From the NCBI GenBank assembly GCA_963575745.1, contig CAUYUJ010000066.1, positions 1 through 64,000 on the forward strand: a stretch of DNA of 64,000 bases, read 5' to 3'. The notes beneath the pieces were generated by a model that saw only the letters and a program-made list of their open reading frames with translations, was not told the DNA's origin and searched no databases. The translations under genes and the position numbers were made by a program. Below are positions 1,252 to 59,139 of this stretch, piece after piece (the stretch's first letter is position 1; each line of letters starts with the position of its first letter). The stretch comes from Prorocentrum cordatum (taxonomy: Eukaryota).

Positions 1252-2693
1252 CTGCGGGATGGCTGGGGAGGGCGGGCATGGGCGCGCGGGCATTGGGCGC
1301 CCGCGGGGGGAGTGCGAAGCAGGAGGCCTCGGGGGGCGGAGGACGGGGCCGACGGCGGTGCGAGCGGCGACACGGTCGCAAGGGGATGGCACATACATGG
1401 GAAGAGCGGGCAGGGTGCGCACAGCTGCAGCGGAGGCGGGCAAGGCCCCGCGGCAAGCAGGGGGAGAGGAGAGACACGTAGATTAGGGGCATAGTCCACG
1501 CCGCATGGAGGGCATGGCGAACTCGGGCGGATGGGGGGGTGGGCGGCGATGAAAGGATGAGGGGTGGTGGAAGGGGGAGGGGGGAGGGGGCGAGTTTGAA
1601 ACCACCTAGGTAAGAAACTGCTAAAGCGGACGAGATGGCGAGGAGCTCGCGGGGCAGGGAGCCTGAACAGTCATCTCGGTCACGGGGTCCATGGGTCGAC
1701 CCCTGCTGCGGCTGCGGCTGCGGCTGCTGGGTCGACGGCCACCCCTGCGGCTGTGCAAGCTGTCATGGCCCGTCGGCGGGGACATGGCCGCGCCCAGCTG
1801 GCAGTCGGCCTGGCCGTCGAGCTGGGCGTCGACCGAGACGCCGCCGACGCCGACCGTCGGGCCCCGATGAGCGGCAGCGCCGCGAAGCCCACGTGGATGG
1901 AACGTTCGATGTCAGAGATGGCGGATGGCTGCAACAATCTTGACCCGATACACTTGGGGCGCATATACACGTGCGCGCCCTGGGTCGGAGTGTGCACGGC
2001 GTGCGAAACGCTATCGGCTGAGCGCCCTTGCCCTGGTGCCACATGCTGGACCTGGGGTCACTGCCCCTCCCCCTCCCCGCCCCCGTGTGACCACGCGCGT
2101 GTTATCCCCCAGCCCCTCCCACCAGCACGCCCGCGCGCGCCCCTACTGGAACACGGCGCTTGAGGAACCCCTGAACCGATGCCGACCACCCGAGAATAAT
2201 AAAGGATCCCCCAAACCCCTGAAACCTACAGTCTAAACGCAATGTTGAAACTGTCGTTTAACTGGGCATCCTGTGCCTCGCGGTTTTCATTGGCATTGGC
2301 ATGCGCGCCCTGGGCCAGCCCTCTCGTTCTGCGCCTGGAGCCTGGATCCCCGAAGCGAGCGCGAGAAGATACAGATGGGCACGGCATCGCCGTAGAGGGC
2401 CCGAGGACCCGAGGGGGCGACGGGCACGAGGGCCCCGACGGCGAGGGGGAAGGAGTGGGCGCGGAACCCCATGGTGCAAACCCACTGCGGGACCGACCGA
2501 TGCAGCGCTGGCTAGCTGCGCGCACGGGGCGAGCCTCTGGCACACAAGCTGGGGCGCGCATCACGTGCATCACGCATGGGACATACTGCGCGCGACGCGC
2601 TGCGCACGCGGTGCCAGAATGACGCTGTGGCGGGAAAGTTGTTGCACCGAAAGACGCCGCTACATGCAGCCATCCGCCTCTCGGCACGCACCC

Positions 2694-5600
2694 CTATTGA
2701 AATAGCTCGTGCTCGGAGTCCTCACCTGGGAGCTTCTCGCGCTCGCACTCGAACAGCACGTGCGAGCCAGGGAGGGTCTTCAACCAGTCCCTGGCAGCGC
2801 GCCGATCTCCCAGCGAGCACCCGAACATCAACTTGTGCTCATCCGCAGTTGCCCAGGAGCCGTGCTCCCTTAACCAACATACCAAGAAGCCCAGGGGTCG
2901 ACCAGTCCCCCGCGCTGTACGCTTGCACTTGATACCAATGCGATTCTTCCTGCAACAATGGCTGGAACGAGGGTCGGCGGCCTGGCCCTTCTTGCGCCTG
3001 GCACCCGCGCCGTCGTCGCGGTGCAGCTCGTCATGGCAGTGCGCGTAGAACCCAGACGTCGCATAATGAACAATGGCGCCCAAACCAGGTATGTCGAAAT
3101 GCACCACGTCACGGTCCCGAGGTTCCAGCGCTACAGGATCAGGAGGAGGTGGAGCGTCCCCGCTAGGTGCAGCGCCACCGTCGCCGCCTGCGCCGTGCCC
3201 ACCATCTCCATCGCCCCCGCCACCCTCATCACCTCCACCACCGTCGTCTGAAATGCCAGCGTCGGGCTGGGGCGGCGTCGGGCCAAACATGGACCACTCA
3301 CCATCGCTGGGGCCATCGTCTCCATGACCAGGGTCATCATCGTCATCCTGAGGGAGCTCACCAGGCCCCTCGCCATCGTCCGAGTCGTCGCCCTCCGCAG
3401 CAGCGCGCCACGAAGCAAGCATCTGACCCGCACTCAACTTCTTAGCTTTCGATGGGCTCCACCACTCATGGACGAGGCCGCCGCCCAACGCGACGACGTC
3501 AAGATATCGAGCCTGTATCGTGCCAACGAGCTCCCCCGTGTAGCCGACTCTGAAGAAACACACGTCCCACGCGATATCGGCCCTGAACTCGCGAACTGCC
3601 GTCCAGTCAGTAAAGTTAGTTGTGAGCGAGGTGAGGCGCGCGCGGCTCAATGCCAACTGCCCTGGGTTGCCCTCCGCGCGCCTCGACGCGTCAACACTAT
3701 CCCCCTCGTCGGATGCCTCCATCTCGTGGATGAACAACGTGAACGGCCTAAGCTTGACGTCGGCCAGGAAGAACCAGCGAGGACGAGGACCAGGACCAGG
3801 CTGGGCGCCGACGCCCACGCCCTCGCCGCCGTCGGCGGCGGGTCGAGGCGCTGGGACAACCAGGAGAACGATCTCAGCGCCGAGCAGGGCGTCCTGCCCG
3901 TCAGCCTTGGGGAACTGGGACGTCACGATCCTGTGGAGCTTGGCCCGCATGGCAACGTGTGCTTTCCCGAGGGGTGAGCACAGGCACGCGTTGGCCGCGT
4001 GGCAGAGGCGGGTCTTCAGAGTTGGCGGGTTCGCAGCGTTGCTGCTGACGTCGGGGACGGGCCTGTGCTGGATGGTGCTGTGGGCGGCGGCCCAGACCTC
4101 GTCGAGCTGCGCGCGCAGGAGCCGAGCGTGCTGGTGCCGACCGCTGTGCGATAAAATAGACCCCGTCATCTTCTGAACGCTCTTGTTCTTGAGCTCCAAA
4201 TGCTGGAAGCAGTCCGTAGAAGTCGGCGAGCTCGATACGTCTGGCGCGTGGCGCCTGGCCCCGTCGCCGATGGCGGCCATGGCGCGATCCACTAGGCAGC
4301 CCGACGCGTCCACGTCGTAAGCCCTGAGGCGCTCCAGCTCCTCCTTCTCCGCAGCCCTCGCCCTCTGCGCCTCCTGCCTCCGAAGCCTGCTCGCGGCCAT
4401 GAGGCCGTCCCAATCGAGGGCTGCGAAGCCGCCGACCGCGACGACGCCAGCGTCGGCGCCAGGGGCAGCGCCCGCATCGGGAAGAGCAGCCCGCCTGCGC
4501 CGAAGCCCCAGCGGCGCCGCCGAGCCATGATCGACAGCACAATTAGCCTCTGCAGCCCGTCTCGTCAAAGCAGCGAACTCGTCAGGGGACAAGTCCGCGT
4601 ACCTGGTGCTCAACTGCGCGAACGTCGGCATCTCTGCAATGGACTTCCCGCGCTTCTGCTCGCTGCAGAAGACGCTCCACTCGGACAACCTCCGCTTCCT
4701 CGCCGCGCCCCTACTGGCGCCTCCTCGGTCCTCATCGCCCCCTTCGTCAACGGCTGCATCATGTTGCTTATCGTTGAATATCTGCCGCCACAGCCCAGAA
4801 GCTTGCATCTGAATGCCCTTGGAGATCCACTCGGCGTTCATGCCGTGCAGGTCGATGGCCCTCCCCTGGGGCGACCATCCAAGAACGAACCGACGAAGTA
4901 CCCCATGGTTCCTCTCGATCGACACCTGATCACGACGAGCTTTCAACGCAATCGCCATCAACTCCATGCCTGCATCGACTGCGTGCACACCACCATGACA
5001 GCCAGTGAAATGTCGAGAGAACGCGTCCATGCGCTTAGAGCACTTCATGTCGTCTGCGATCTCCGACGCAAGGGCGCCGTTGGAAAGGGTGCCGAACAAC
5101 TTGTAGGGGTAGTTGCTCAGCTCGTCAACAAGACTATGAAAGCGACAGGCACTGCGAGCAAGCATCTGGAACGCCATCGTCTGGTACACGTGGGTGCGAT
5201 CTCTGAGGGGGAGACCGTCGAATGCAGCGTCATCCATGATCAGGGCGTGGCATGACTCGATGACGGCCCGCTCTTCCCTAGCAAGGTAGGCCGCCTCCAG
5301 CTGGTACGTCCGAGGGGGGCGACGTTGGGGGCCAGGCTCCATCGATCTATCCAGCTCCACGCGCCTCTGGGATCGTTCCCACTTGACGCTGGCCAGGCCC
5401 AAGAAACCGTAGATGTACGACGCGTGGATGTAAGCAACTCGACACATGATGACGCAATCTTGCAACACGAGGCCACTATCGCACCATGTCAAGACCGACT
5501 CTCGATACTTACTCTGCTCCTGTCGGCGGGCCTCCCAGACATCCTGGCCGTCGGGCTCCCCTGTGGCAGAGGGGCGCTCACTACGCCCCCGCCCCGCGCG

Positions 5601-7430
5601 CGCCGACGCACCCGTGCCGCGGGAAGTGCGCGGAGCGCGCGCGCCTTGAGGCCCGCCCCGTGGCGGGCGGGCCGCAAGGCGCGCGCAGCTGCTGCACCTG
5701 GGGCGGCGTCGGGCACGCTCGGGGCAAACGCGTAGCGTGCGCCCCCAAGACCTGCGACGGCGCCGCCAGCACCTCCTGCAGCAGCGCGTGCATCGGCCTC
5801 GTCAGCATCACCTGCATGATGTCCTGCACCAGCGCCAGGGTCAGCGCCGCCGCCGCCGCCCGCGCCGCCGTCATCAGCGATCGCAGGCAAAGGCGCGCCG
5901 CCGTCGGCAACAGGCGCCGCCGCACGAACGGCTCGAACGTCACCACCTGGACCAGCCTTATCTTGAAGTAGCTGGCAGAAGAGCCTATATATCGGAACGA
6001 AGAGGCCGTGCGCGATCGCCAGGGGCCCAATCCAAGACGGCCCTTTCTCCCAACATGTCCAGCCCCTGCCGGGGTAATTGTGCAACTCGCGGTTCACGAC
6101 GGCGCCGACGAATCTGAAGAGGAATCGCGCCATGACCAGACCACAGACAACGAAAACCGAACATCACCGCCGCGCCTGGCCAGGCCGACCCAACGCCTAA
6201 GATTGGCACGCGCGCGCTCCCCCCCCCCATCCGCACCCCTCGCCCTTAGACCGTATCTCGCGCGCGTCCCCTCCCTCTCGCCGCGCGCCGTGCCCCGCCC
6301 GCCTACGCGGGGGGGCCGAGCGCCAATCTCGGGTTCGGGGTCGGCCTGGCCACGCGCGGCGTTGGCGGCCAGCGTTCGTCGCCCACCTCGCGCTGCGCCC
6401 CTGGCGGAACGAACGTCTCCACGACCTCCTCGTCATCCCAGTTCCCGCCGCACATGGTCAGCACGAGCGCCCGCAGCGGCTCATTCTCCTGGGTGTTCGG
6501 GAGCACCATGTCGAGCTTCCTCGCGTTCCTCGTCCGCGCCTCCATGGACGGCATGCCGTATATGATCTTCAAGCGCTGCGCAATGACGAGACGAGCGGCA
6601 GCCCGGAATACTTTGCGGTGGTTGCCAAACCTCAGGGACAGCACTGCATGCGTCATGTAGCTGTGGGCGGACTTCGCGGGAACTGCAGCGCGCTCCCGAA
6701 CAGTCGCGCCCTTGTGGGCGAAGCAAAGGAGACGCAGCGACGGCGTGCCCAACGATGTCTGCAAAGCGCGCTCTGCGCGGCCAATGGCACCATCGCCGTC
6801 CGTGCAGCTCACCCTGTACGCCCTGGTGCACAGCCTCGATATACCCTCCCACCCGACCAACTGCAACACGAACTCGCAGGCCAGGAAATAACACTCTGCT
6901 GTGCACCGCCCAACGTTCAAAATCGGAAGGGGGACATCGAAGGTGAAGGCCGTATACTGTTTGTCGACCTGCACCAGCAACGTGATGGCACATTCAACCT
7001 GGAGCAGCTTGGTCGGGGCCTTATCTCGGGACGAGCTGACGTGCCAGAAGGAAGTGTCATGATTCAAGATGTCCCTCAAATGCTCGAACTCTTTCGGGAG
7101 AAGGGCGTCTGCTGCAGCCTCAGGGACAGTAACTGACATGGGCGTCTCATCGTACCGAGTCGTGAATATAGCGCAGACGGCCACCCCTTTCTTGGACACC
7201 ACGTCGCCGACGAGAGTGGAAATAAGTAGTTTCACCATGAATATGTGAAGCACCATAGAACAACACGAGGACAAACATTTCATGTTTCTCAATGCTTTGC
7301 GATCGATGCCAAACTGGGCTGCCTGGGACTTGAAACTCCCTCTGGTGCGCACTTCTCGGTTCATTGCAATCTTGACTGTCTCGGCGGCCCTGTCATCTGT
7401 CAGGAGCAAGTGCGGGTGCGAGGTAGCCAT
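2694..7430 (-). CDS. Large DDE transposase-like protein (C/DxxH group) with HMG-box-like and C-terminal Cys/His domains; exons 7430-6387, 6136-5698, 5560-2694 (1449 aa from the ATG at 7430; true start may be further upstream)
   Basis: Three minus-strand ORFs join in frame when introns 6137-6386 and 5561-5697 are removed (junctions ...PPGAQRE|VMARFLFRF... and ...DAAPG|EPDGQDVWEARRQEQSKYR...). Motifs in order: TRYDETP (D, ~7150), SCTDGDG (D, ~6800), LCFAH (CxxH, ~6720), VSIERNH (E, ~4915), RLSEWSVFCSEQ..YADLSPDEFAAL (HMG-like, ~4540-4700), HCHDELH..CCRK..GRPLGFLVCWL (C-terminus). Confidence 0.65.
5561..5697 (-). other. 137-nt GT-AG intron of the transposase gene
   Basis: CCAG|GTGCAG donor and CCACAG|GG acceptor, both phase 1. 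Removal joins the 5489-6133 frame to the 2694-5492 frame. Internal hairpin gcgcgcgccttg..caaggcgcgcgc at ~5635-5686. Confidence 0.7.
6137..6386 (-). other. 250-nt hairpin intron of the transposase gene (GT donor, non-canonical CTG|G acceptor)
   Basis: GAG|GTGGG donor in phase 0; an in-frame stop lies inside; the ends are inverted repeats (6338-6359 vs 6170-6191 match 21/22, and pairing extends to 6386/6143). Removal restores the frame. Confidence 0.6.
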
Positions 7431-7607
7431 CCGCGCAACGTCGGAGATGACCTGGCCGATGGCGTCGATGTCGCAGGCCCCGCAGCGAGCGGCGCCAGCG
7501 CGGGGCGGGCCTCCTGCGACGGGGGGGCGGCATCTCCCCTCCCCCCCCCCCCGCCCTAACACTTAAAACGCAAATGGGGCGCCGCTCTCATCCGCCCAGA
7601 CACCCAA

Positions 7608-7656
7608 TATCCGCGACGACCCCCCTCCCGCGCAGGCAGGGGGGTCGTCGCGGATA
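7608..7656. repeat. Perfect 18-bp inverted repeat with 13-nt loop
   Basis: tatccgcgacgacccccc (7608-7625) / ggggggtcgtcgcggata (7639-7656). Confidence 0.9.
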
Positions 7657-8116
7657 CTAAGCCCGTTCCCGACATGAAACTCCCCCGCGAGAGTCACGCA
7701 AGACGACCCGACCGCCGCCCTAAGTTCGCGCGGCCGCTACGCACGCGGACGCAAACTTATTTTCAAAATGGGGATCTCGCTGGGCTCTTCCTCGAGCGTC
7801 CTGGCCGCGTGTCCAGGCGCGCCTCGCGGCCAGGGGGGCGCAGGCGCCCCGCCGCCCGTCGCGGGGCCCTCGCCGCAATGGCGGGCCCACGGGGCCCTCG
7901 TCATTCTAGGGGGGGGGGCGGGGAGGGGGGACAAGAAACGCTCGCAAGGGGGCTGCGCAAAAGGGCTTGGGGGCGGGGACTCTCACGCCCATGCATCGCC
8001 GATGCGTCTTGAATTTGCCGTGGCCCTCCTCCTCCACCATCCTAGCCCCCCCCCTCCTACCCATCATTCTCATCGTAGTCTCCGTCCGTCAGCGCCCCCG
8101 CCCCGCCCTCGTCCCC

Positions 8117-8543
8117 CTATATTGAATAGGGGGACGGGGGCCCAGGAGGCGTTTCAGAACGCCCGCGTCCTGGGGCCGCCGCGCGGGCGGCGGCGGCACG
8201 GCGCCACGCAGCAGCAGTGCGGCACTGCTGCTGGGCGCCACCAGCCACCGCGACCTCTGCGCCGCCAGCCGCCGCGACGACCCCGCCCGCGGACCCGTCG
8301 GCGCCGCCCCCCTCCTCGCCTCCGCCCTCGGCCCCGCTCTCCTCCTCTGGCCGCCAGGCCCAGGCGCCGAGGGCGGAGGGGGCCGCGCCCTCGGCGGGCG
8401 GGGCCGCGCCCTCCTCGCCCGCCTCCTCGGCGCCTACGCGCCAGGCGAGGAGGGTGGCGGCGGCGCCTGCGGCCTCGGCCGCAGCGCCAGCCCCGACATC
8501 CTCGTCGACGTCGTCGGGGCGGCCCGCCCACTGGGCGAGCATG
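8117..8543 (-). CDS. Possible upstream low-complexity (Ala/Gly/Glu) exon of the transposase-like gene
   Basis: ORF MLAQWAGRPDDVDEDVGAG...EEESGAEGGGEEGG resembles the acidic Gly/Ala linkers in the downstream gene and has the same strand. Splice path not resolved. Confidence 0.3.
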
Positions 8544-9759
8544 AAAGGCCGAAACCGTTTGGGCCAAATCGTGCAATGCGGGACGTGCGTGGAACACATA
8601 TAAGAGGCGCACTACATGATGTGAGTGGCGGATGATGCAATGATATCGATTTTCGCGAAACACCATATTGTAGATGTAATGTGTACGGGCGTTGTGGATG
8701 GCGATAGACAATGATATTGCATGTGCCATGGCGGGAGTAAAAATACAACACGACCTAGGGACAATCACACAGGACAATTTTAGGACAAATCTGCCGTTTC
8801 TACAAATCATGAGCCAAAGGGGCCCCGAACATCTGAAGAAATACTGGCGCAAACATATAAATAGTGGAAATACCGGCGCAAACGTGTGGATGCTGGGGCA
8901 TTCCTGCACAAACGGCCGGCGGAAGGCTCCATTCAGGCGGGATGCCGGCGGAAAGTTGGCGGGAGGCGGTGGACACGAAGGCAGGTCTGTCGAGAGGGCG
9001 ACCTTGCTTGCGGCCAATTCTTCTGCTGGGCCCCAGGCTCACGCAGTACATTCTCTCTTCCCGGCACAGAGAGGCGCGCGCGGCCCTTCGGGATGCGCAA
9101 TACGAGGAACGCTACCAAGACATGCGCAGGGTCCGCGATGCATCCGGCGTGCACGTGCACTGCCACGTGCACTCACTTTCCTGCGGTATCTGGGCCAAGG
9201 CCACAGCGCGCGTCCGCGTTCCGTGCCGCACCAGCCCACGCTGCCCCACGAAGATCTCGCCCAAAACCAGATCTTGTCGCGCCACGAAGCGAACCCGGGG
9301 TCGACCCGTTCGGGGCCGCACCAACGCGCAATGCCCCAGGCAGCGCTGCTGTCAGTGCTTCCCACTCACCAGAGGACGATATCGGGGGCGACCAGCGCGG
9401 GGGCGACCAGCGCGAAACCGTCTACATAGACGGCGACGCGCCATGGACCCCGGTCGGGGAACCCCAGAACATCGGGAACTTTGCCGGACCTTCGTCCGGA
9501 AGGAGCGTTGGAAGCTGCTCCTTTGATTCACTTCTTTTTTCCTCCTCTGTATCATTGCTTTTCCCTATCCTTCCTCCCTGCTCACCCACGCCCCTTTTCC
9601 AGGACTTCGATGGGAAGGCCGTGAATTACGCAAATGGAGGAGAGTTATGCACAACGACGACACCGTGGAACAACACGTGATCGTGGTGCGCAAGCAGCAT
9701 GTGGATCCGGATGGGAACCCATGCCAGATTCTGTTCAAGTGTGTGCTCTACGGAGGGGC

Positions 9760-47130: not shown

Positions 47131-48719
47131 GTAACGTCAGATCGTTCCATACTGGCCGACTCCTGGCCACTGGCGGCGTTCAACCTTGAACGCCCACGCT
47201 GGGATCGCAGCCACGTCGACACGACACGAACCCACTGGACCTCCCCTCTGTTGACGGGCAAAGTCAGGGGGCACCAGGTTAGGGGGTGAAACATCAAGCG
47301 ATACATCGCCGATAGATAGGCAACAGGCCCCTGTCGGCGATGAATGGGCGACTGGGGTCGATACGTTCCCCCGTGGCCCTATCACAGGGAAAGAAGGCTG
47401 CACAAACATAAGCTTTCCGAGGTCCGCGGAGATTTCGTGTTTCTGCGCTGGACCTCCCCTCCATGGCGCGCGGAGCGCGCTGGTGGCGGCGTTGGAGGCG
47501 CCGCCCAGGGGGTCCAACGCAGATCCAAGAGATCATGTAATTTTATCTTCTTCGACTGACGTTGCCCCTGACCTTTCCCAACCTCCACCTCTCGTCCGCC
47601 CCGAGCTTGCTGAAGACTCCGCCTTCGCTCCGAGGGCAGGGATCCCAAACCCCCGACGGCATGATTATTTTTCACAACTTCGACTTCAGAGAACTCGACC
47701 CATCCCCTGGGACCGGTTTTTCATCCCGAATCGTTTTCTGACGGTCCCGGGGCCCGGCAAAGGATTCTGGAGGCCAAAAATAATGAAAAACCTCGCGCCG
47801 TTATTTTTTCATGACTCGAGGGGGTCTGCGGGGGGGTGCACTGCCAAAGGGGTCACCACCAGGGGTGTCGCCACTTCCTAAAGGAACGGCCGCCTCCTCG
47901 AGGGCGTGGGCTCCAGGAGCGCTCCAGGAGCGCCCCCGACGACTTGGGTGACCCAAACGGGGGTCCAACTGAAACGGGGTGGGGCAATAGATTTGGGGCA
48001 GTTCTATTGCGAATGTATTGCGCCGGAGACCTGTATTGCATTGTATTGCGAGGAATGTATTGCACGCGAGAATCCAGCAATGCATTTGCGCCCTGGAATG
48101 TGTTGCACACCCCAACATGTATTGCAACCCCACAAAGCCATTTCACCAAATCTATTGCACGATCCCTTTGTCGCTGGACCCCCTTTTGGGTCAACCCGAA
48201 TGACGACCCCAGACGTCCAATAAAAACCTCCTCGAGCATCGATCCTGGATCCCCGATCCTCGGGACCCAGACAGCCAGCTGCTCCAACTTCTTTGGTGCG
48301 TGGACCCCGGAGGTCCAGACCACTTCTCCATTGAGAAGTCGAAGAATTAAACAGCCAGAGGTTGGGCCAAAGATGGTGCCAGAAGAAGCTAGCCGGATGC
48401 TGTGCCACTATCGTTGCGCCGTTCTGGCCACGTGATTGCTCTGATGTTCCGTGTTGTTCTGTGGTTGGCGTTTGGGCTATTGATGGAGAAATTCTCCAGG
48501 GCCGGCCCTGGAGGAGTTCTCCAGGGCCGGCTGTTTGCCTTGAGTCGTTTCTTGACGCGCCCGGGGCCCGGCGAAGGCCCCCAGAGGCCGAGAACGGCCA
48601 ACAACCGCCGGCTCCGATTATTTGGGAGCGTCGGAGCTCAGGGGAGGAAGCGGTGCCCCCCCCCCTGGAGGCGAACCCCCTGGGCATTGCCTGAGCTGGG
48701 AGCGGGAGAGAGAGAGCCC

Positions 48720-48977: not shown

Positions 48978-50514
48978 CCAGCCCGCCCGCCGCCTCGCTG
49001 CTGCCCTGCCGGGCGCGGAGGCCCGCCGGCGAGCGCCCCCCGGACAGCAGCCAGCCCATCGCTGGAGGGCACGGCGGGGGGAGGGCGGCTCCTCCTCCCT
49101 CCTCCTCTCCTCCTTTTCCTCCTCCTCCTCCTCTTCCTCCTCCTAGCTCCTCCTCCTCCTCCTCCTCCTCCTCCTCCTCCTCCTCCTCCTCCTCCTCCCT
49201 CCTCCTCCTCCTCCTCCTCTCTCCTCCTCGTCCTCTCCTCCTCCTCCTCCCCTCCTCCCTCCCTCCTCCTTCCTCCTCCTGTTCCTGGATCCCAGCGGTG
49301 GAGAGGGGGCGGGGGGGGATCGCCACCACGGACGCGGAGGAGCAGGGGGGATTGCTCTTCAGCGGCCACGGGAGGGAGGGGGGGTGGAGTGGGGGGCAAC
49401 GACACGGGGGGACTGGCATAGAGGGGGACGCATCGACGTGGAATCCCCCCGATAGTGAATCCGCACATTCCTGGTCGGGTTGGGGCTGTCAAACCCCTAT
49501 CGGCGATCAATGGGCGATTGGGGGTCGATGCATCCCCCCCCATGCCTATCCCCCCTATCGTTGCCCCCGAGGGAGGGGACAGCCCTGAGACCGGGAGGGC
49601 AGGAGGGGAGAGGAGGGGAGGTGGGAGGGCGGGAGGGCGCTGGGCAGGAGGGAGCATGAAGGGGCCCAGGGGCACACAAATAAATACACACACACACACA
49701 TCCCAGGACTCCCCATATTTCAGAACATTTTCTGGGCTTTCGTCTCCCCCCCCCCCCACTTCCCATATTTTCCCATATTCTCCGCGGGATCGAGGATTAC
49801 TATGGTGTCTGTGTGCTTTGCCCCCTCCCGAGAGCAACCCCGAGGCCCGGGCGTTGCAAGGGGTTGGCCGCCGGGCGCGCTCGCCAGGTCTCGGGCCCCG
49901 GGGCCATCACAGCTCGACCTGGCTCGAAGGGTACAACAGAAAGACAGGGTCGACCCTCGTCGCCACGGCGGGATTCGGCTTCTGACATTCCGCTCAGTGC
50001 TGAGCGGGCGAAGAGCGGCACAGCACGCGTTTCCCGTCGAGCGGTGTACCATAGTTTTTGTCCGTCACCGGTGGCGCCTGTCCTGGGGCGGCTGGACAGT
50101 TCATACCCTGACGTGCCTGCCACCGTAGGGGTATGAACTTTCCAGCCGCCCTGAGACTGGCGTCCCCAGCGGCGAAGAAGCTTATCTAATACCGTTCTTC
50201 GCCCGTTGAAGAACACGCGCCACGAGAGGACGGGGCTCCGACGGTTGTGGAAGAGATCCATCCAGAGAACGAACGACTTTTTAGGGATCCTAAATCCGTG
50301 TGGTGACAGACCGTGTGGTGACCTCGGAACCCCAAGAGACCTCACCGCACGGTCTGTCACCGCAGAGTCTTGGGACCCTGGAGGCCCCTGTCGCCCAAGA
50401 CATCCCCAGAGAGGGGCCCGAGTCCCAAAACCGTGCGGTGACCCCGAATCCCCACCGACCACCACTGGAGGCCTCCTAGATGGGGTCCGAGTAGATGGGG
50501 TCGACGGAGCTCGC

Positions 50515-50668
50515 CGCATCGCCGATACATCTGCGATGCATCGTCAATGGATCGGCGATGCATCGGCGATGCACTGGCGACGTCGGCGATGCATCGGCCA
50601 CGTCGGCGTAGAGAAAATTTGGCCCCACATCGAGCCGCATCGCCGATGCATCGCCGATGCATCGCCGA
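50515..50668. repeat. Palindromic GCATCGCCGATGC/GCATCGGCGATGC array
   Basis: Multiple direct and inverted copies. Confidence 0.75.
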
Positions 50669-51769
50669 CCGACCCCACCTACTCCGACGCCATCTAGGAG
50701 GCCTAGAACCAGACGGTGTGGTCACCACCCCGCCTGGGGGCCCCCGAGCCACTGCGCTAGCGGGCTCTGCCACATCTTGGGCCTCGGGAGGCCCCTCGCG
50801 GGCCCCCGGGGCATCACAGGAGAGGGGGCGGCTGGGCGTGACAGAAGGGGGGGGGGCGGTACCTTGAGGGGAGAGGCGTGCACCCTCCGTGCCCCTCTTG
50901 GTCCTCGGGCCCCTTTGGGGCACAAAAGGGGTGCACCCCGACCCCCCCCCCAATATCGCACCGCCATTGCTCGACGCCCGAGGGCGGGGCGGGAACACGT
51001 TTGCAAGGCGTGCGTTTGGGTAGCACAGCTGCGCATCTTTCGCCGGATGCGGGCTCTCGCCGCACAACCTGCTGCGGGTGCAGAGGGCGCAGGGCCACGA
51101 AAACGACATGTGCTTGTGAACGGGAACAACGACTCAGCACCGTTCCGACGTGGATTTGGCTATCTGACACGGGGGGGGCTTTTTCAAGACAAATCCAAAC
51201 ATGTGCTCCTATTGCACTGTTTCTGGTGACACGCGCGTGTTCTTTGCGGTGCCGAAGCTGGTTGTCGGAGAATGACCCGCCCTGGGCGCCCTGGGAGGGG
51301 TGGGCAGGCGGGGTCGGGCCCTGGACATAGCACGCACATTATGATATGTCAAGGTCAGGCGCGGCCTTTGGGAGCAGCAGCAGCAGCAGCAGCAGCCGCA
51401 GCAGCAGCAGGAGGACGACCTGTGTAAACGCAAGACTTATCAACAATGTCGGAATGAATCCTCTCTCCAACCTCCTTCTTCACTGGCCCCTGCAAGGGTT
51501 CATTTCCACCCAGGAAACTGCCGCGGTGGGAGACAACTGTTTGCAGACCCTGAAGCGTGCCAGAACCCCAATCTCGGGACTCCAACGCCACGGATCAACC
51601 TGACTGTTGCGTCTTGACAATCATGAATCGCGCCAGAAGGCAATTCCCAGGACCCCAACTCCGCGAATCGACGTAACTGTTGCGCCCTCACAATCCTAAA
51701 TACTTCCAAAACGTCATTTCCAATATGTTGACCATCGGAATTCGTGAAACTCCTGCAAACTCTTAGAGC

Positions 51770-52070: not shown

Positions 52071-55000
52071 ATCTGCGAAGCGGTTGTCATTGTTCAGCTT
52101 CGGGGTCATAAATGGTGAGCAAATCTCAAGCGAAAGGCCCACCTCACCCTTTCGACCGGCTTCGGGGTGCGACAGGGAGGAGCGAGGAGGAGGAGGAGGA
52201 GGGGGATGAGGAGGAGGAGGAGGAGGAGGAGGAGGAGGAGGAGGAGGAGGAGGAGGAGGAGGAGGAGGAGGAGGAGGAGGAGGATAAGGAGGACGAGGAA
52301 TGAGGAGGATGTGGAGGATGTGCCCTCGCGCTGCCCCGCTGAGATATCTGCTCTGGAGCGGCTCCCGCTCGGAGCTCCTTCACAAACCTACCCCTGGGAG
52401 GGGCCCCTGCCCCAAGCATCCTCACGACTCTACGGCTTAAACGTGCTGGACCCAAGTCGCCCCAGGAGCGGCCGAAAACGCCCCAAGAGCGCGGGCCGAA
52501 ATGTGTCAGGCCCCATGCTGACCCCAATATGGTTCCGAGCTGGTGCCAAGGTGGCCCCCCACATGGCCCACACGATGGTCCAAGACAGGCCGATTTACTG
52601 CACAGACGGCCCAAGATGGCCAAACAACTATTCCCCGGATGCTCACAAAAAAGCCGTCTTTTGGAGAGCCATGTGTTTTTCGATTGTGTTGGCCTCCGTG
52701 TCTGTGCCGACTTCAGTTGGCTTCTCAGGCCACGAGATGGTCTGAAGAGGGCTACAGAAGAACCCCAAGACGGCCCCGAACCCTTCGTAGAGGGTCCCCA
52801 TAAGGTTACATACATTATCCCGCATGGCCCAAGAGCAACCCCTGCGGCGGCTAGTGGGAGACAGGCTCTTATATGGCTTCAAGGCGACCCCAGTGGCCCC
52901 ATGATGACCAAATGGCCCAACATGGCCCAAGACAATCCCCAAGGAACACCGTGGAGCCCCCAAGAGGCCCCTGAGAGGTCCCGGGAAGGCCCCTGAAAGC
53001 CTCCAGAGATCACCAGCGAAAGCCCAAGATGGCCAGAGTCATAAAAACAAACACACTTTTATGTCGCAGCGCGGTAGAAGAGATCCGTTCGCGCCCTATT
53101 AGCTGGGGACGCGCGGCGTACTAATTCGCAGGCAGCAAGCAAAGGAGGAAGAGGGCGGTCGCAGAAAACAGGCGGGGGAGGAGGCACTCACCGTGGAAAG
53201 AGTTCCAGGATGAGCGGCCAGTGCGGCCAGCCGATGCTGGGGCAACGTGGCAGTGGACGCGGAGCGGCGTCACGACCACACCTGGGGGCTGAAGCCAAGG
53301 CTGCAGGCGCTGAGAGTGTAGGGCAAAGCGAACCAGCACGTCAGGAGAAGCGGCGCGCGGTCCCACAGCGACATGAGTGGGAATATCCAAGTGTCCGTCG
53401 CGAAGCCGTAAGCGTCGGACTTTGCTGCAAAAGTACGGCGCCAACAGGATGCAGACACGGACTGAGAGTCTGTGGCGGGAGACGGGGCTGCGAACCGCGT
53501 GCTGCAGTGCTGAGCCCACGGGCTGCTGAGCTGCTGAGCTGCTGAACTGCCGCAGCGCTGCAGCAGGGCGAGCAGCCACCTGCCAACGCCAGGGGAGGCC
53601 CAGGCGGCGGGGGGCGGCAAGAGCAGGGGATAGAGAGGAGCCACCGAGGCGGCTGGTGCACGCATCACCGCCTGGCGGTGCGGGGGCGCCTGGTCACAGG
53701 GCTGGCCAGGCAGGGGCGCCGAGCTGCAGAGGCGGCACGCGGTGCGGCGAGAGCGCGGGGAGGGGCCGCCCAGAGCGCAGCCGGCGGGGGCAGCGCGCAG
53801 GACAGCACCAGGCGCGCAGCACGGCTCACTGGTACCTGCGCGAACAACATGGCGCCTCCAGGAGCTGCACCGGGAGCGCCACCCGGACACCTCAAGCACG
53901 TCACTTGCACTGTAGCACCTGGTCGGTAAACATAACCGAGCGCCCCGGATGATAAAGCATTCCCCCTTCAGACCTGAGAGTTGAAATTCCTGGGCCAAGA
54001 CAGAGTTGGTCGAGGGAAAGGGCCCGCCAGGCCGAACTTCATTAGTGATCACCGGGGCAGCTACGAATGGAAATTTATATCTTCTCATGTTGAGTAGCAG
54101 CACTATCGCGAACGTGTGGCAAGTAAAAGGATTCTCACCATTTCAGCTTTCCAAACTTAAGAACGTGGGGCAGGGCTATGGGGCTCTCACCATGTCACCC
54201 AGGAAAAGCTCTCGCGGCAGCCCAGGCGTGCACCAAGTGCTTGCCCAGCATGAGCGGCTCCAGCGGGTGCCGAGGCTGTATGGGCGAACGCTTCGAGACA
54301 GTTCGCAAGAGAGGCTTCTTGGCGCGCTCCGCCAAGGACCTCCTAGTACACGGCGAGCTCGAAGCCCCTGACGAGCAACACCGAGGTGCTGGGGTCCGAG
54401 AGCCTCGAGGTGCAATCACTAGAGAATCGCATCCGTACATGCAAGTTCTGAAGCCCTCCGAGGGAACCATCCCATCCCTACCTCCGTACGTACGAGCTGC
54501 TGGGAAAAAGAATTGATTATCCCCCCGAGCCCCGATTTTTATCATCCCCCGGGTGTGATTATAGTAGTGAAAGAGAGAGGAGCATCCACCCTTGAGGGTG
54601 GACGCGCCTAGCAGGGCGGGGAACGAGAAAGGAAAGGGGGCCGAATCACCTCGGGGGGCCAGCACGCTTTCCAGGAGCACCTGATCGGTGCAACATCTTT
54701 TTGTTAGCTCTTTCTCTCGGGGACTGTACAGCGAGAAGGTCTTTGAGTAACTACGTCTTGCGTGTAATGCCTTCGCGATGCCGCAAGGCCCGCGCAACGC
54801 AACAAAAACAGGCCACCAGCGCACACCATCTGTCCAGGGTCGGCTGGGCCTCAGCCGCCTGCCCGTGGGCGCAGCGGCTTGATCGCGGGAGGGCCCGCCT
54901 GATCGACCAAGCCTGCATTCAACAAAAAACAACTAATTCGAGACACCCGTCCGACCAAGCTGAGGGGGGACCGTCGAGTGCACGGGCCCGTCGCGGGCGC

Positions 55001-55155
55001 CGCAGCTGCTGACTTCGGCAGCCTCTGCCAAATAGGGGCGCCCTGCGCCCCCCGGGCCCCCGCACCAGGCGCGCGCGCGCAGCCCCGGCCCCGCTGCGGC
55101 TGGCCCTCCCGCGGGGCGCCGCTCGGCACCTGCGCGGTGGCAAGGGGTCCCTCGC

Positions 55156-55968
55156 TCAGGCCTTCGGCCCCCTGCCGCGAGAGCTGGCGGCCGGCACACC
55201 GTCGTAGCACGCGTCTGGCTCCCCGCCGTCCGCCACCACATACGGGCCTATGCTCTCGCAGAACCCACGGGGGTCCTCCGTGATCTCGCCCAGCCGGCTG
55301 CAGACCAGGCTGTCCTGGCCACAGGGCGACAGCGCGGACGCCGCCCTTCCAGCCTCGTAGAAGCTCTCCCGGCAGGCGTCGAACCAGCGCGCGCAGAAGT
55401 CGGGGCAGAGGACGACCCGATCCGACTGCGACTTGAGACCGGTGCCCACATCCCCGTCGCACGGGGAGCACATCGCGAGCCGGGTCATCCGGCCGCACCT
55501 GCCGGAGGCGCTGTGGGAGAACGGCGCGTAGCGCACGAGCGCCTCGCGGGTATGGTTGCCCTCGCAGCACGTCCTCCCGTGGTGCTCGGCGCAGAACCTC
55601 AGGCCCTGACCGCTCCTGACCACCTACCAGACCACCCCAACCTAAGCCGAAGACCCAAGTTTCGGGTTGGCGGGGGCACGGGCTCCACGTGTTTTTTCCG
55701 ATGTTCCCCGACCGCCCCCCCCCACTGGAAATCAAGGGTAAATTTGGGCCTTCGGGTTGGGTTGGGGCGGTTTGGTGGGTGGCGCGCTCCTGTCCATCGG
55801 CACCGCGGCGCCGCTGAAGCCCAGCGCCGCCGAGCAGCGCCCCCTCTCGCCGGGCACGGGCCCCGCGCCCGCGGCCGTCAGCCGCAGCGCTGCCAGCGCC
55901 GGCAGCAGCGCGAGCCTCGGCGCCCGGGCGGCACGGGCGGTCGCGACGGGCGGCGTGGCGCGGGCCAT
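55156..55968 (-). CDS. Secreted folate-receptor-domain (Folate_rec-like, Cys-rich) protein, copy 1; exons 55968-55790 and 55615-55156
   Basis: Signal-peptide-like LALLPALAALRLTAAGA; FC..H.GRTCC...C....CSPCDG.VG....LC.DFC.RWFDAC..SFY....LSPC...SLVCS.L.EI......FCE pattern. Spliced length 212 aa; a further 3' exon via the AAG|GC donor is possible. Confidence 0.82.
55616..55789 (-). mobile_element. Introner: GA-AG intron with 43-bp TIRs and an 8-bp direct repeat (also at 58787-58960 and 61952-62127)
   Basis: TIRs 55620-55662 and 55740-55782 (36/43 complementary); CGCTCCTG at both 55611-55618 and 55785-55792; in-frame stop inside. Confidence 0.8.
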
Positions 55969-56038
55969 GGCCGCGCAGGGCTGGTCGGCGATCCTCGGGG
56001 CGTGCGCTGGCGCCAGCGTGCGCTTGCTCAGCAGAGCT

Positions 56039-56056
56039 CTTGAGCCAAAGGCTACG
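56039..56056 (-). promoter_or_regulatory. Relict dinoflagellate spliced leader (also at 59210-59227 and 62377-62394)
   Basis: CGTAGCC--TTTGGCTCAAG vs DinoSL DCCGTAGCCATTTTGGCTCAAG, ~70 nt upstream of the ATG and on the sense strand. Confidence 0.8.
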
Positions 56057-58326
56057 CATCACAGGAAAGACATGAAAAAGGTTCCATGATGTCGGCCTTT
56101 CTGCCTCTGCGGGCTGCAAATGGTCTTCTGGGCCCCCGTGGTGGCCCCACCCCGAGAGGCCCAAGAGGGCTCCAAGAGAGCCCCCCAGAGCACCAAGACA
56201 GCCTCAAGAGGTCCCATGACGACGCCAAGGTGGTCCAAGACAGACCCCACGAACCCTCCACGTGGCCCCACTAAATCCCTGAGGCGCCCCTGAGAGAACC
56301 CCATAAGGTGGGGGTGGTCAGAGACATAGGAGAACATAAGAAATTCAATGATTTTGGGCCTTTTGCCTCCGCGGGCCCCAGGTGCCCCTAGAGAGGGCCC
56401 CAAGAGGGCTCCAAGAGAGCCCCCCAGAGCACCAAGACAGCCTCAAGAGGGCTCATGACGACTCCAAGGTGGTCCAAGACAGACCCCACGAACCCTCCAC
56501 GTGGCCCCACTAAATCCCTGAGGCGCCCCTGAGAGGCCCCGGATAGCCCCCAGAGTCATTCCGAATTCTCCCGGTATCATATGTCCAGGATCGTATTAAA
56601 ACAAGGACTTGTCTTACATGACTGTGGTGTTCCTGCCTCTGCGGGGACCCCCAGGGGCCCTATCGCAGGAAGATGAGCCCCGACCTCGCCCTCTCGACCT
56701 CCTCTCCCCCTCCCCCGCCCACCACTTTCAGAGGTCTTTGTCAGTCTCTTGAGTTCGCAGGGCCCCGAGAGGCCCAGCAGCGGGGGACCAGCGGGAGCCA
56801 GGCACCAAGATTACCCCACGATGCCTCGAGATGACCCGAAGGTGGCCCAAGACAGTGTAAAGCCAGTTGGAAGACCCAACCTTGCTTCTTGTATCGTATG
56901 AGCGATAATGCCAAAGATAGGGCATGGCCGCGTGAGCGGCGAGAGAGCATCTCAAGAGTAAGATTGCGGGCCGATGTCAGATAGCGGGCCGCGGTGCGAC
57001 CCGGTCAAATTAGCGGCTGGTCGCTTGGGCCCAAGCGGCCGCGGACGAACGCTCGATACCTCTCGCCTTTGCCCTTCCTCCTTCAGAGTCGGGGTGGGGA
57101 GAAGACGAAGCGTGAGTCCGCTACCTGCCTTACTCAGCCAAACAGCTCTATTCCAAAGGAAAGGCAGCAGCCAGCGGGCTCAACCTTAGCAGGTTACCCC
57201 GAAGGTGGCCCAAGACAACCCCCAAGAAACCTCGAGGTAGCCCGAAGGCGGCCCACAGGAGGCCCGAACGAGCCCCTGAGAGGACCCCAGGAGGCCGCCT
57301 CCAGAAGCCTCCCTAAGACCCCCAAAATACACCCCGACAGCCCTGAAAAGGGCTTCTCAAATTGCCTTCTCGTACTTTTGGCCTTCGACGGCGAGACTCG
57401 GCTGGGGGCGTGATCCGCTGAGTGTTGCACTCAATCTGACAAGCGGCAGCTTCTCCCCCACGCGAGCTTCACGCAACAGATGGGGGCACCACCGCTCAAC
57501 AAATCCCAATGCCCACGAGCACGCACGCAAATTGCAAGCACGACGCAATGTGGGCCCGCGGAATGAAACAAACGAACAAACCATGTTCGGCGGTCCCCCT
57601 GCGGGCCCTCGCCGTGCAGACCCACGCGGGTTGACCAAGATATGGAAGAGTATGGATTGAGATGCATGCGTAAATGCATGCTTGGAACGGCTTCGTGCAT
57701 TCCGCCGGTCCGAAGAAGCCCGATGACGGCATCCGCAGGCCAGAGCGCGGGGATTACATGAGGATTGCCGAATCGCTTGAGACGTCCTCGAGAAAGGAAA
57801 GGGGGCCGAATCACCTCGGGGGGCCAGCACGCTTTCCAGGAGCACCTGATCGGTCTTTTTGCAACATCTTTTTGTTTGCTCTTTCTCTCGGGGACTGTAC
57901 AGCGAGAGGGTCTTTGAGTAACTACGTCTTGCGTGTAATGCCTTCGCGGTGCCGCAAGGCCCGCGCAACGCAACAAAAACAGGCCACCAGCGCACACCAT
58001 CTGTCCAGGGTCGGCTGGGCCTCAGCCGCCTGCCCGTGGGCGCAGCGGCTTGATCGCGGGAGGGCCCGCCTGATCGACCAAGCCTGCATTCAACAAAAAA
58101 CAACTAATTCGAGACACCCGTCCGACCAAGCTGAGGGGGGACCGTCGAGTGCACGGGCCCGTCGCGGGCGCCGCAGCTGCTGACTTCGGCAGCCTCTGCC
58201 AAATAGGGGCGCCCTGCGCCCCCCGGGCCCCCGCACCAGGCGCGCGCGCGCAGCCCCGGCCCCGCTGCGGCTGGCCCTCCCGCGGGGCGCCGCTCGGCAC
58301 CTGCGCGGTGGCAAGGGGTCCCTCGC

Positions 58327-59139
58327 TCAGGCCTTCGGCCCCCTGCCGCGAGAGCTGGCGGCCGGCACACCGTCGTAGCACGCGTCTGGCTCCCCGCCGT
58401 CCGCCACCACATACGGGCCTATGCTCTCGCAGAACCCACGGGGGTCCTCCGTGATCTCGCCCAGCCGGCTGCAGACCAGGCTGTCCTGGCCACAGGGCGA
58501 CAGCGCGGACGCCGCCCTTCCAGCCTCGTAGAAGCTCTCCCGGCAGGCGTCGAACCAGCGCGCGCAGAAGTCGGGGCAGAGGACGACCCGATCCGACTGC
58601 GACTTGAGACCGGTGCCCACATCCCCGTCGCACGGGGAGCACATCGCGAGCCGGGTCATCCGGCCGCACCTGCCGGAGGCGCTGTGGGAGAACGGCGCGT
58701 AGCGCACGAGCGCCTCGCGGGTATGGTTGCCCTCGCAGCACGTCCTCCCGTGGTGCTCGGCGCAGAACCTCAGGCCCTGACCGCTCCTGACCACCTACCA
58801 GACCACCCCAACCTAAGCCGAAGACCCAAGTTTCGGGTTGGCGGGGGCACGGGCTCCACGTGTTTTTTCCGATGTTCCCCGACCGCCCCCCCCCTCTGGA
58901 AATCAAGGGTAAATTTGGGCCTTCGGGTTGGGTTGGGGCGGTTTGGTGGGTGGCGCGCTCCTGTCCATCGGCACCGCGGCGCCGCTGAAGCCCAGCGCCG
59001 CCGAGCAGCGCCCCCTCTCGCCGGGCACGGGCCCCGCGCCCGCGGCCGTCAGCCGCAGCGCTGCCAGCGCCGGCAGCAGCGCGAGCCTCGGCGCCCGGGC
59101 GGCACGGGCGGTCGCGACGGGCGGCGTGGCGCGGGCCAT
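58327..59139 (-). CDS. Folate-receptor-domain protein, copy 2; exons 59139-58961 and 58786-58327
   Basis: Same translation as copy 1. Confidence 0.82.

Follow-up and report, generated by a model that had tools for sequence, protein, structure and literature searches.

The window (the whole stretch of 64,000 nucleotides that was analysed, on contig CAUYUJ010000066.1) contains a multi-copy, transposase-like gene of Prorocentrum cordatum that belongs to an unnamed family. A hairpin insert of 250 nt (6137..6386, minus strand) lies in sense orientation within the coding frame of this gene. It begins with GT, ends with TG and is the putative intron 1 of its host; among the 57 inverted repeats of the window it is the longest. 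The exons, the parts of the insert and the neighbouring AG dinucleotides are listed in Table 1.

Table 1. Features of the host gene and the hairpin insert in the order of transcription; in this table and in the text a slash marks an exon-intron junction.
Feature	Position	Strand	Remarks
Exon 1, RNase H-like transposase-type domain	6387..7460	-	tblastn of 5 homologues; open frame to 7562
Direct repeat GGT, 5' copy	6385..6387	-	last exon base + GT; AGGT including the preceding A
Outer 5' arm, intron nt 1-27	6360..6386	-	GT donor is the first two bases; partner 6143-6169
Middle 5' arm, intron nt 28-49	6338..6359	-	21/22 Watson-Crick with 6170-6191
Central G-rich spacer between arms, 104 nt	6213..6316	-	
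Middle 3' arm	6170..6191	-	partner of 6338-6359
Outer 3' arm	6143..6169	-	T-rich, 48% T vs 19% in gene; stops 6 nt before the 3' junction
Direct repeat GGT, 3' copy	6135..6137	-	last insert base + first two exon bases; preceded by T6138, where an acceptor needs A
Exon 2, homology-backed part	5940..6136	-	tblastn; frame probably on to ~5812
First AG past the insert, CTCTTCAG/A, likely cryptic acceptor	6114..6115	-	out of frame with the GT6386 donor
AG of alternative in-frame GT-AG intron, 301 nt	6086..6087	-	would delete 17 conserved residues
Candidate intron 2, ordinary GT...CAG/G	5561..5811	-	from enumerated frame-keeping GT-AG pairs; other GT donors 5772, 5751 possible
Exon 3, long open frame to family C-terminus	2697..5560	-	1035 codons; equals CAK0788495.1 apart from one modelled gap

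A representative search with the exon 1 product returned 383 homologues. Its structural model (pLDDT 86.1) has an RNase H-like fold, with a best VIA-align Z of 8.9 over residues 34-190 (Argonaute PIWI, retroviral integrases and RuvC-like proteins); values of 7-8 are often reached by models that match nothing clearly. Foldseek gave weak matches only, the best at E 0.012 (RNase H, ISCth4 and Hermes transposases). In MULE DDE transposases certain acidic residues are conserved, and a C-x-x-H motif follows the second Asp. Among 30 sequences of the host family D163 and H191 are invariant and C188 is nearly so, and D46 lies in a consensus RxDETP; a third acidic residue was not identified. No Pfam family, the MULE DDE profile included, matched the three host ORFs at E up to 0.1, and among 40 homologues searched at E up to 0.01 there was none for 39 and one sub-threshold YABBY match. 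In the protein atlas, MULE/Mutator clusters appeared only at scores of 0.80-0.83, which serve as leads only. Because no Pfam family matched, the label “transposase” is a putative one that rests on fold and motifs. A search of 1800-8600 for terminal inverted repeats of the host transposon gave no convincing candidates.

By comparison with homologues, removal of 6137-6386 restores the conserved protein to within about one codon. The exon ends given by tblastn fall at 6387-6399 and 6136-6142, and homologues align from the first codons past 6136. The spacing of two anchor motifs across the junction is 46-50 residues in 21/159 stored homologues with both motifs (47 in 14), and in the window it is 46 after exact removal of the insert. 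There is an annotated protein of P. cordatum with 99% identity, and the window's own model and two further models are on three different contigs. No close gene model was found to extend across the junction among proteins of 165-525 or of >264 residues; relatives came from the representative search alone. The deposited models over the locus begin in the wrong frame and are without the catalytic exons. Candidate intron 2 holds a hairpin of its own, of 22 nt and 95% identity, at 5637-5686.

As minus-strand RNA the insert folds at -152.6 kcal/mol (z -4.66). The pairing given in the preliminary description was reproduced in full: intron nt 1-12 pair throughout with nt 233-244, 6 nt short of the 3' end (7 Watson-Crick, 5 G-U); the outer 27 positions comprise 14 Watson-Crick pairs, 9 G-U pairs, 1 A-C pair and 3 transversion mismatches; and the inner arm (intron nt 28-49) holds 21 Watson-Crick pairs out of 22. 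When strict Watson-Crick pairs only are counted the terminal run is short (5 pairs and isolated ones), with runs of 8 from nt 26 and of 15 from nt 35. Over all arm positions 22/70 are non-Watson-Crick, and these are distributed unevenly, 13/27 in the outer arm vs 1/22 in the middle arm (Fisher P 0.001). Such a difference in decay is not predicted by uniform neutral decay. An Rfam search of 5900-6600 gave no match.

The 5' border of the insert reads CGCGAG/GTGGGC, a GT after an exonic AG as in the dinoflagellate donors (GT, GC or GA after AG). The 3' border is GTGGTCTG, followed by exon sequence GTCATGG, and thus reads TG/GT. The insert sits between codons, and an exonic G (GH) stands directly after the 3' site since exon 2 begins with GT; the 3' AG of a canonical dinoflagellate intron is missing, as the sole junction that preserves the conserved residues is TG. 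By chance, a 3-nt match such as GGT would be expected at a given place about once in 64 cases. There is no AG dinucleotide on the minus strand between 6175 and 6116, the nearest being 39 nt upstream and 21-23 nt downstream, so that no canonical acceptor yields the conserved protein. The TG had been called the only in-frame acceptor. Strictly this does not hold, as AG6087-6086 (301 nt) and AG6048-6047 (340 nt) also keep the frame from GT6386; every such alternative removes residues that are conserved among homologues. GC donors at 6393 and 6396 are likewise in frame with AG 6115-6114 or 6067-6066, again with loss of conserved residues.

Other ways of drawing the borders were rejected. GTGG, present at nt 1-4 and once more 8 nt before the 3' end, might be read as a 4-nt target duplication, but with the 242 nt removed the frame is wrong and soon meets a stop. 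The sequence has no U12-type or AT-AC borders, and sliding the cut within the GGT repeat gives GG-CT, TG-GG or GG-GT, none of them nearer to canonical.

An excess of G-U over A-C pairs (9:1) in the outer stem had been taken as evidence of selection on the transcript. This argument is weak, as local substitution bias alone predicts about 63% G-U. The binomial P of 9:1 is 0.011 at a naive 1:1 expectation, 0.031 or 0.088 with the base composition of the gene or the insert, and 0.068 with the substitution spectrum between copies of the host gene; with all 70 arm positions included, G-U and A-C stand at 12:3. Among the differences listed between host-gene copies, 27/35 transitions are C<->T on the sense strand, and given this strand bias the G-U excess alone is no proof of selection on the transcript. 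The T of 7/9 outer G-U pairs sits in the 3' arm, and of the outer stem's three transversion mismatches, two likewise place a T in the 3' arm opposite C; these C-T mismatches fit the T-enrichment of the 3' arm rather than the keeping of pairs. When both strands were folded, the plus strand gave the better z-score (-6.0, against -4.7 for the minus strand). The outer 27-nt stem forms in the sense-strand RNA only (-21.8 kcal/mol vs -13.0 for a different fold on the other strand). No such G-U bias was found in four other hairpin elements of the window.

Further copies of the locus were sought in contigs from three public runs, which were taken as DNA; they contain no exon-exon joints and are uninformative on splicing. 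One contig crosses the 3' junction and has the same TG (CTG), with 4 substitutions and one 2-nt indel relative to the window in 512 nt and positions 6137-6139 unchanged. The indel of this copy consists of two additional bases after 6218, in the spacer; another contig crosses the 5' junction. The TG, being common to at least two copies, did not arise as a recent change in one of them alone. Among the public contigs compared, none with CAG and none free of the insert was found, and metagenome contigs gave 0 matches to a pattern for the gene with the insert absent or spliced out (exon-end and exon-start motifs separated by 0-12). In a public protein set labelled Pyramimonas sp. CCMP1952, an ORF of 80 residues runs from exon 1 into the insert; it was not counted as RNA retention. 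The host-gene copies are about 0.5-1% apart. Of 23 coding differences among those listed, 9 are synonymous and 14 non-synonymous (the count used 24 of 30 listed rows, of 55 in total, and left out 6 upstream of exon 1), and there is no clear constraint among these differences.

Within the window, BLAST with the insert returned the insert itself and short chance words only. A two-motif pattern of the insert had 0 matches in viral contigs and 1 in metagenome contigs, an unrelated bacterial gene without the repeat. The preliminary description had compared the 3' end with that of a “folate-gene introner”, and the sequence it cited, GTGGTCAGG, is indeed present at 55623, 58794 and 61959 (minus strand) in a tandem-repeat hairpin element. 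The two 3' ends are alike in 21/27 bases, including GTGGTCTGGT (equalled in 23/2000 shuffles, for a region picked post hoc). Over their whole length the insert and this element are not similar, 137/500 shuffles scoring as high. The long ORF of the supposed folate gene has no Pfam match, and 113 other long ORFs of the window gave three sub-threshold Pfam matches only, elsewhere than in the host gene.

Introner elements of Amoebophrya and P. cordatum have been defined as introns whose ends carry inverted repeats (8-20 nt) as well as direct repeats (3-5 nt) (PMC7789003, PMC10666404); the introns of P. cordatum reportedly show an enrichment of such elements, at 2.4% of introns (PMC10666404). For the class described in Polarella, a duplicated AGGH target gives both splice sites (10.1101/2020.10.14.339549). 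The insert has inverted repeats of this length within about 30 nt of each end and a direct repeat, GGT, over its borders. It shares with the introners of dinoflagellates (Polarella, Symbiodiniaceae and P. cordatum) the inverted repeats at the ends, the short direct repeat over the junctions, a sense GT donor from an AGGH-type target with GH past the 3' site, a length of a few hundred nt and a position within a coding exon. It differs from them in its 3' TG in place of AG, in a host that is itself a transposon-type gene, in unusually long arms (about 70 nt) with decayed tips, and in that no further family member was found in the window or in the viral and metagenome contigs searched. By analogy with the published anatomy of dinoflagellate introners, the insert is an element of a known kind, and it is from anatomy only that we infer its origin as a mobile element.

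Certain introners of the parasite Amoebophrya also combine a hairpin near the ends with a 3-5 nt direct repeat at the borders and are not GT-AG (Farhat et al. 2021, PMC7789003). Non-canonical introns make up more than 60% of those with RNA support in that genome, and some of them have the layout of inverted and direct repeats; their junctions have RNA-seq support of at least 3 reads, whereas the insert is known from DNA alone, and Amoebophrya apparently is without U1 snRNA (PMC7789003). In the insert, unlike these introners, only the acceptor is non-canonical. We know of nothing comparable to the loss of U1 snRNA for Prorocentrum. Euglenid non-conventional introns have no GT-AG, and base pairing in short stems draws their ends close to each other; euglenids are a lineage different from Prorocentrum. 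Human TG acceptors reportedly adjoin a normal AG. The nearest AGs of the insert lie 39 nt upstream and 21 nt downstream, whereas the human sites, in which TG likewise replaces AG in an otherwise GT-type intron of the U2 class, are alternative sites, verified in 36 genes (Szafranski et al. 2007, PMC2374985). MITE-type insertions nested in transposases resemble the insert as short inverted-repeat elements with a small target duplication in transposon coding sequence, and transposase genes disabled in this way resemble the host in having near-identical copies without clear constraint. The insert differs from such insertions in that its ends mimic sense-strand splice signals and its arms pair better as sense RNA.

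With moderate confidence we favour an introner-type insert with a defective acceptor, which disables this copy of the host transposon. The insert would be a non-autonomous hairpin DNA transposon with long imperfect inverted arms and a GGT repeat in an AGGT target. Introner elements become introns because the duplicated target supplies AG/GT at both ends. At this locus the 5' copy, AG/GT, makes a good dinoflagellate donor, while the 3' copy, TG/GT, leaves the usual spliceosome without an AG at the sole place that restores the protein. Transcripts might then retain the insert and run into a stop after 27 of its codons, or use the next AG at 6114, 23 nt downstream, which shifts the frame; by both routes no full-length protein would be made from this copy. 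The insert would thus be a crippled intron, or one that never functioned, in a transposon copy and not a regulated gate, and the G-U excess would be mostly a by-product of C-to-T-type change on the sense strand that made the 3' arm T-rich. Several observations count against a defect. The arms are non-Watson-Crick at 22/70 positions and the copies only about 0.5-1% apart, yet exon 3 is open to the family C-terminus; if the arms were once a perfect repeat, a gene that is still open would imply that the insert was long removed from the RNA. The sense-strand G-U excess, the T-rich tract just before the 3' end, the outer stem that forms in sense RNA only and the far stronger decay of the outer than of the middle arm also count against it, and the TG shared by at least two copies counts against a simple defect.

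These same observations bear on a working GT-TG intron, in which the long stem leaves only a few nt between donor and TG and a cut at TG/GT gives the full-length protein; we regard this as rather unlikely, and give the same standing to its wider form, a core-dinoflagellate counterpart of the Amoebophrya hairpin introners that is cut by the spliceosome or by another activity. Exact removal gives back the conserved protein, the insert lies between codons and shares with dinoflagellate introns both AG/GT at the 5' border and GH past the 3' one, the TG recurs in the second copy, and the arms are far older than the copies of a gene that is still open. To these are added the G-U excess on the sense strand with the T-rich 3' arm, the non-canonical introns of Amoebophrya (>60% of those with RNA support, some with the same layout; PMC7789003) and the TG sites verified as alternative sites in 36 human genes (PMC2374985). 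Such an intron would also be invisible to the annotation of P. cordatum, because its gene models, as described, were built with only GT, GC and GA donors allowed as non-canonical (PMC10666404). Against a GT-TG intron, the G-U excess is not significant given composition or local substitution bias (P 0.03-0.09), the plus strand has the better z-score, and non-AG acceptors are absent from the sites described for core dinoflagellates in these accounts (PMC10666404, 10.1101/2020.10.14.339549). Moreover, the copies of a multi-copy transposon need not function, and non-synonymous differences outnumber synonymous ones among those listed.

Ordinary splicing at other sites could yield a shorter in-frame protein, through GT6386-AG6086 (301 nt, 17 residues fewer), GC6393-AG6114 (280 nt) or GC6393-AG6066 (328 nt), but we consider it improbable. 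All three pairs leave the frame open through exon 2, GC, at 51.4%, is reported to be used more than any other donor in P. cordatum, a pyrimidine run is present in CTCTTCAG, which supplies the first AG after 60 nt free of that dinucleotide, and an AGG motif occurs at CCCCGGCAG/GG. Each pair nevertheless loses conserved residues, either the hydrophobic stretch past the junction or an FP-x-R-x-W/F motif. The GC donors are not preceded by an exonic AG, and the base after AG6114 is A and that after AG6086 is T where G is expected, the AGG motif being reported at 79.7% of acceptors in P. cordatum gene models; the best donor, AG/GT6386, does not keep the frame when joined to the first AG, 6114. It is very improbable that T6138 is an assembly or sequencing error and the real acceptor CAG: a change of one base would give the GTGGTCAG/G of another hairpin element in the window, but the contig from a public run is unchanged at 6137-6139 while it has 4 substitutions and one indel elsewhere in 512 nt.

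If the insert is a crippled introner, as we favour, it would be an unremarkable outcome of the intense transposon activity that earlier work has described in the P. cordatum genome, and its importance would be limited to the annotation of the host locus. A broader proposal, drawn by analogy with Amoebophrya and in our view doubtful, is that P. cordatum, with a normal-looking spliceosome, removes some hairpin introners at non-AG acceptors, the stem and the duplicated target setting the cut. If true, such introns would be invisible to dinoflagellate annotation, which admits G[T/C/A]-AG only, and they could explain truncated “partial” models such as those over the host locus. Splicing at the TG would mean that hairpin-defined non-canonical splicing reaches from Amoebophrya to free-living, bloom-forming dinoflagellates, and gene prediction in the very large genomes of dinoflagellates would have to admit such junctions. 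The host locus, in a red-tide dinoflagellate, offers a clean test case between both readings.

The 250-nt insert on the minus strand (6386 down to 6137), the putative first intron of its host gene, is a real feature and an example of the hairpin introner-type elements already known; it lies within a transposase-like gene that has several copies. It starts GTGGGCGACGAA and ends GTGGTCTG. Nucleotides 1-12 are fully paired (7 Watson-Crick and 5 G-U pairs) with a 3' partner offset by 6 nt from the end. The outer 27 stem positions comprise 14 Watson-Crick pairs, 9 G-U pairs, 3 transversion mismatches and 1 A-C; from position 28 to 49, 21 of 22 are Watson-Crick, and the arms as a whole (70 positions) contain 48 Watson-Crick pairs, 12 G-U, 3 A-C and 7 transversions. 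The pairing, G-U count and ends given in the preliminary description proved correct. The insert is the longest of 57 inverted repeats in the window (seed 10, minimum arm length 28 nt, separation of at most 600 nt). The folding energy of its minus-strand RNA is -152.6 kcal/mol, against -130.2 (sd 4.8) for shuffles (z -4.66), and that of its plus-strand RNA is -128.3 kcal/mol, against -100.9 (sd 4.6; z -6.01). The isolated outer 27-nt arms form the stem on the minus strand only (-21.8 kcal/mol), the other strand giving a different fold at -13.0. An Rfam search over the insert region returned no match.

PMC7789003 and PMC10666404 describe introner elements with inverted repeats at the intron ends and direct repeats of 3-5 nt; 10.1101/2020.10.14.339549 describes one Polarella introner class in which a 4-nt AGGH target duplication provides both splice sites, with a highly conserved GH after the acceptor. 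The insert resembles dinoflagellate introner elements in its terminal inverted repeats and in a direct repeat spanning both junctions, but differs in its TG acceptor, the misfit to the introner layout. Its 5' border is AG/GT (slash, junction) and exon 2 begins GT; the repeat is GGT (3 nt) or, with the preceding base, AGGT at the 5' and TGGT at the 3' junction.

Other hairpins occur in the window. In each of three tandem units of ~3.17 kb (54800-63000, minus strand) there is a hairpin element that ends GTGGTCAG/G and has an 8-nt direct repeat, CAGGAGCG, on its two sides; its 3' end has 21 of 27 bases in common with that of the insert. Three inverted-repeat elements are possibly further MITE- or introner-type insertions (see table).

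Coordinates of the host-gene blocks, alternative splice pairs and other hairpin elements
Feature	Position	Strand	Detail
tblastn block, exon 1	7460-6387	minus	frame -3
tblastn block, exon 2	6136-~5940	minus	frame -1
tblastn block, exon 3	~5560-2697	minus	frame -3
Alternative in-frame pair	GT6386-AG6086	minus	301 nt; enumeration
Alternative in-frame pair	GT6386-AG6047	minus	enumeration
Alternative in-frame pair	GC6393-AG6114	minus	enumeration
Alternative in-frame pair	GC6393-AG6066	minus	enumeration
Tight hairpin in candidate second intron	5637-5686		22-nt arms, 95% complementary, 6-nt loop
Hairpin just 5' of exon 1 open frame	7608-7656		22-nt arms, 95% complementary
Tandem-unit hairpin element (example)	55620-55782	minus	39-nt arms, Watson-Crick 33/39
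Inverted-repeat element	47946-48196		51-nt arms, 80% complementary
Inverted-repeat element	50058-50179		56-nt arms, 75% complementary
Inverted-repeat element	50469-50704		35-nt arms, 91% complementary

The window is Prorocentrum cordatum DNA. An annotated P. cordatum protein shares 99% identity with the long minus-strand frame 2697-5801, which is identical to model CAK0788495.1 save one modelled gap. Other models of the host gene, CAK0887469.1 and CAK0909931.1, lie on further, separate contigs, so that the copy number is three or more. A search of a representative protein library with the frame 5' of the insert (6387-7562) gave 383 relatives at E ≤0.001; a Pfam search with this frame and 40 homologues assigned no family. 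The AlphaFold model of the frame (pLDDT 86) has an RNase H-like core, aligned by VIA-align over residues 34-190 (Z 8.9) to Argonaute PIWI domains, retroviral integrases and RuvC-like proteins, while Foldseek gave weak rows only, including RNase H and the ISCth4 and Hermes transposases. The conserved residues, D46, an invariant D163 and a C188-x-x-H191 motif, form a pattern that resembles Mutator-type transposases, to which a protein atlas also points weakly. A transposase-like identity is thus reasonable but not proven. Placeable coding differences between copies (9 synonymous, 14 non-synonymous) give no clear sign of constraint.

Models CAK0788495.1 and CAK0887469.1 (locus 5489-6100 and 2697-5801, minus strand, and a paralogue) begin MHALLQEVLAAPSQ, in a frame unsupported by homology, and leave out the RNase H-like exons 1 and 2; homologues place the start of exon 3 farther upstream (...DVWEARRQ) and exon 2 in another frame. 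In the family, exon 3 encodes a basic, K/R-rich stretch with an HMG-like segment after it (3700-4000; P0002 residues 771-800), and one homologue matches the YABBY C-terminal (HMG-like) domain at a sub-threshold level (E 6.9e-5). Short ORFs (P0003, P0016, P0154) from the EukProt set labelled Pyramimonas sp. CCMP1952 are 98-100% identical to the P. cordatum family, which suggests that this set is contaminated or mislabelled.

Five long homologues, aligned by tblastn, run unbroken across the 6387/6136 break, which falls between codons. Among the 21 of 159 stored relatives with both flanking anchor motifs, the motifs are spaced by 46 (3), 47 (14), 48 (3) or 50 (1) residues; omission of exactly 6137-6386 gives 46, and the residues directly past the break (VMARF...) align to a conserved hydrophobic stretch. 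Precise excision, within one codon, would therefore restore the protein. Such restoration is expected of any insertion into an intact frame, and so shows insertion rather than splicing.

The 9:1 ratio of G-U to A-C pairs had been read as selection on the transcript, a view left unsupported after controls for composition and substitution bias. The chance of at least 9 G-U in 10 is 0.011 at 1:1, 0.031 when the gene's base composition is assumed and 0.088 for that of the insert. Comparison of the window with public-run contigs (2600-8000) gave 35 transitions, 27 of them C<->T when read on the sense strand (P 0.002); this strand bias in the host transposon family could reflect transcription-linked or deaminase-type mutation. 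The observed rates, in a 77% G-C stem, predict a G-U share of 63%, under which P is 0.068 for 9/10 and 0.14 for 12/15. The primary signal is T-enrichment of the 3' arm (48% T, against 19% in the gene), which supplies the T in 10 of 12 G-U pairs and also holds two C-T mismatches of no gain for pairing. Minus-strand G-U:A-C ratios in four other hairpin elements of the window are 4:5, 1:2, 1:0 and 2:3, and at 6208 the copies differ such that a G-U pair becomes G-C. Non-Watson-Crick positions are concentrated at the arm tips (13/27, versus 1/22 mid-arm; P 0.001), the opposite of the pattern expected for transposase binding sites; it would be compatible with ends reshaped to meet splice-signal needs, or with clustered deamination.

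There is no AG between 6175 and 6116, and pairing of the best donor with AG6114, the first one downstream, gives a frameshift. The gene's next break has ordinary solutions, e.g. GT5811...CAG/G5561. The TG acceptor had been called the only one in frame, which is not strictly right, as four other donor-acceptor pairs hold the frame (see table); each costs 10-26 family-conserved residues, and splicing at these canonical sites seems improbable. A base-call error at TG is more improbable still: in the public run, presumed to be DNA, contig 6267-6593 spans the 5' junction and contig 5742-6251 the 3' junction, the latter with four base differences and one 2-nt indel but TG unchanged. No contig of this run joins exon 1 to exon 2. 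The acceptor comparison proposed earlier thus yielded one further copy, also TG; searches that covered the window, viral contigs and metagenome contigs gave no CAG-bearing copy, no insert-free copy and no further element of this family. An 80-residue ORF of a public protein set runs from exon 1 directly into the insert.

Genuine GT-TG splicing assisted by the stem is unlikely. It is kept in view by an argument from age, which counts against a defective intron: divergence between the arms far exceeds that between the gene copies, yet the 1035-codon exon is still open. That the insert gates transposase expression is speculation. The most likely reading, to which we would give an even chance, is that the insert is an intron, defective or never functional, by which this copy of the host gene is disabled, and the transcripts of which would meet a stop 27 codons inside the insert or shift frame at a cryptic AG.
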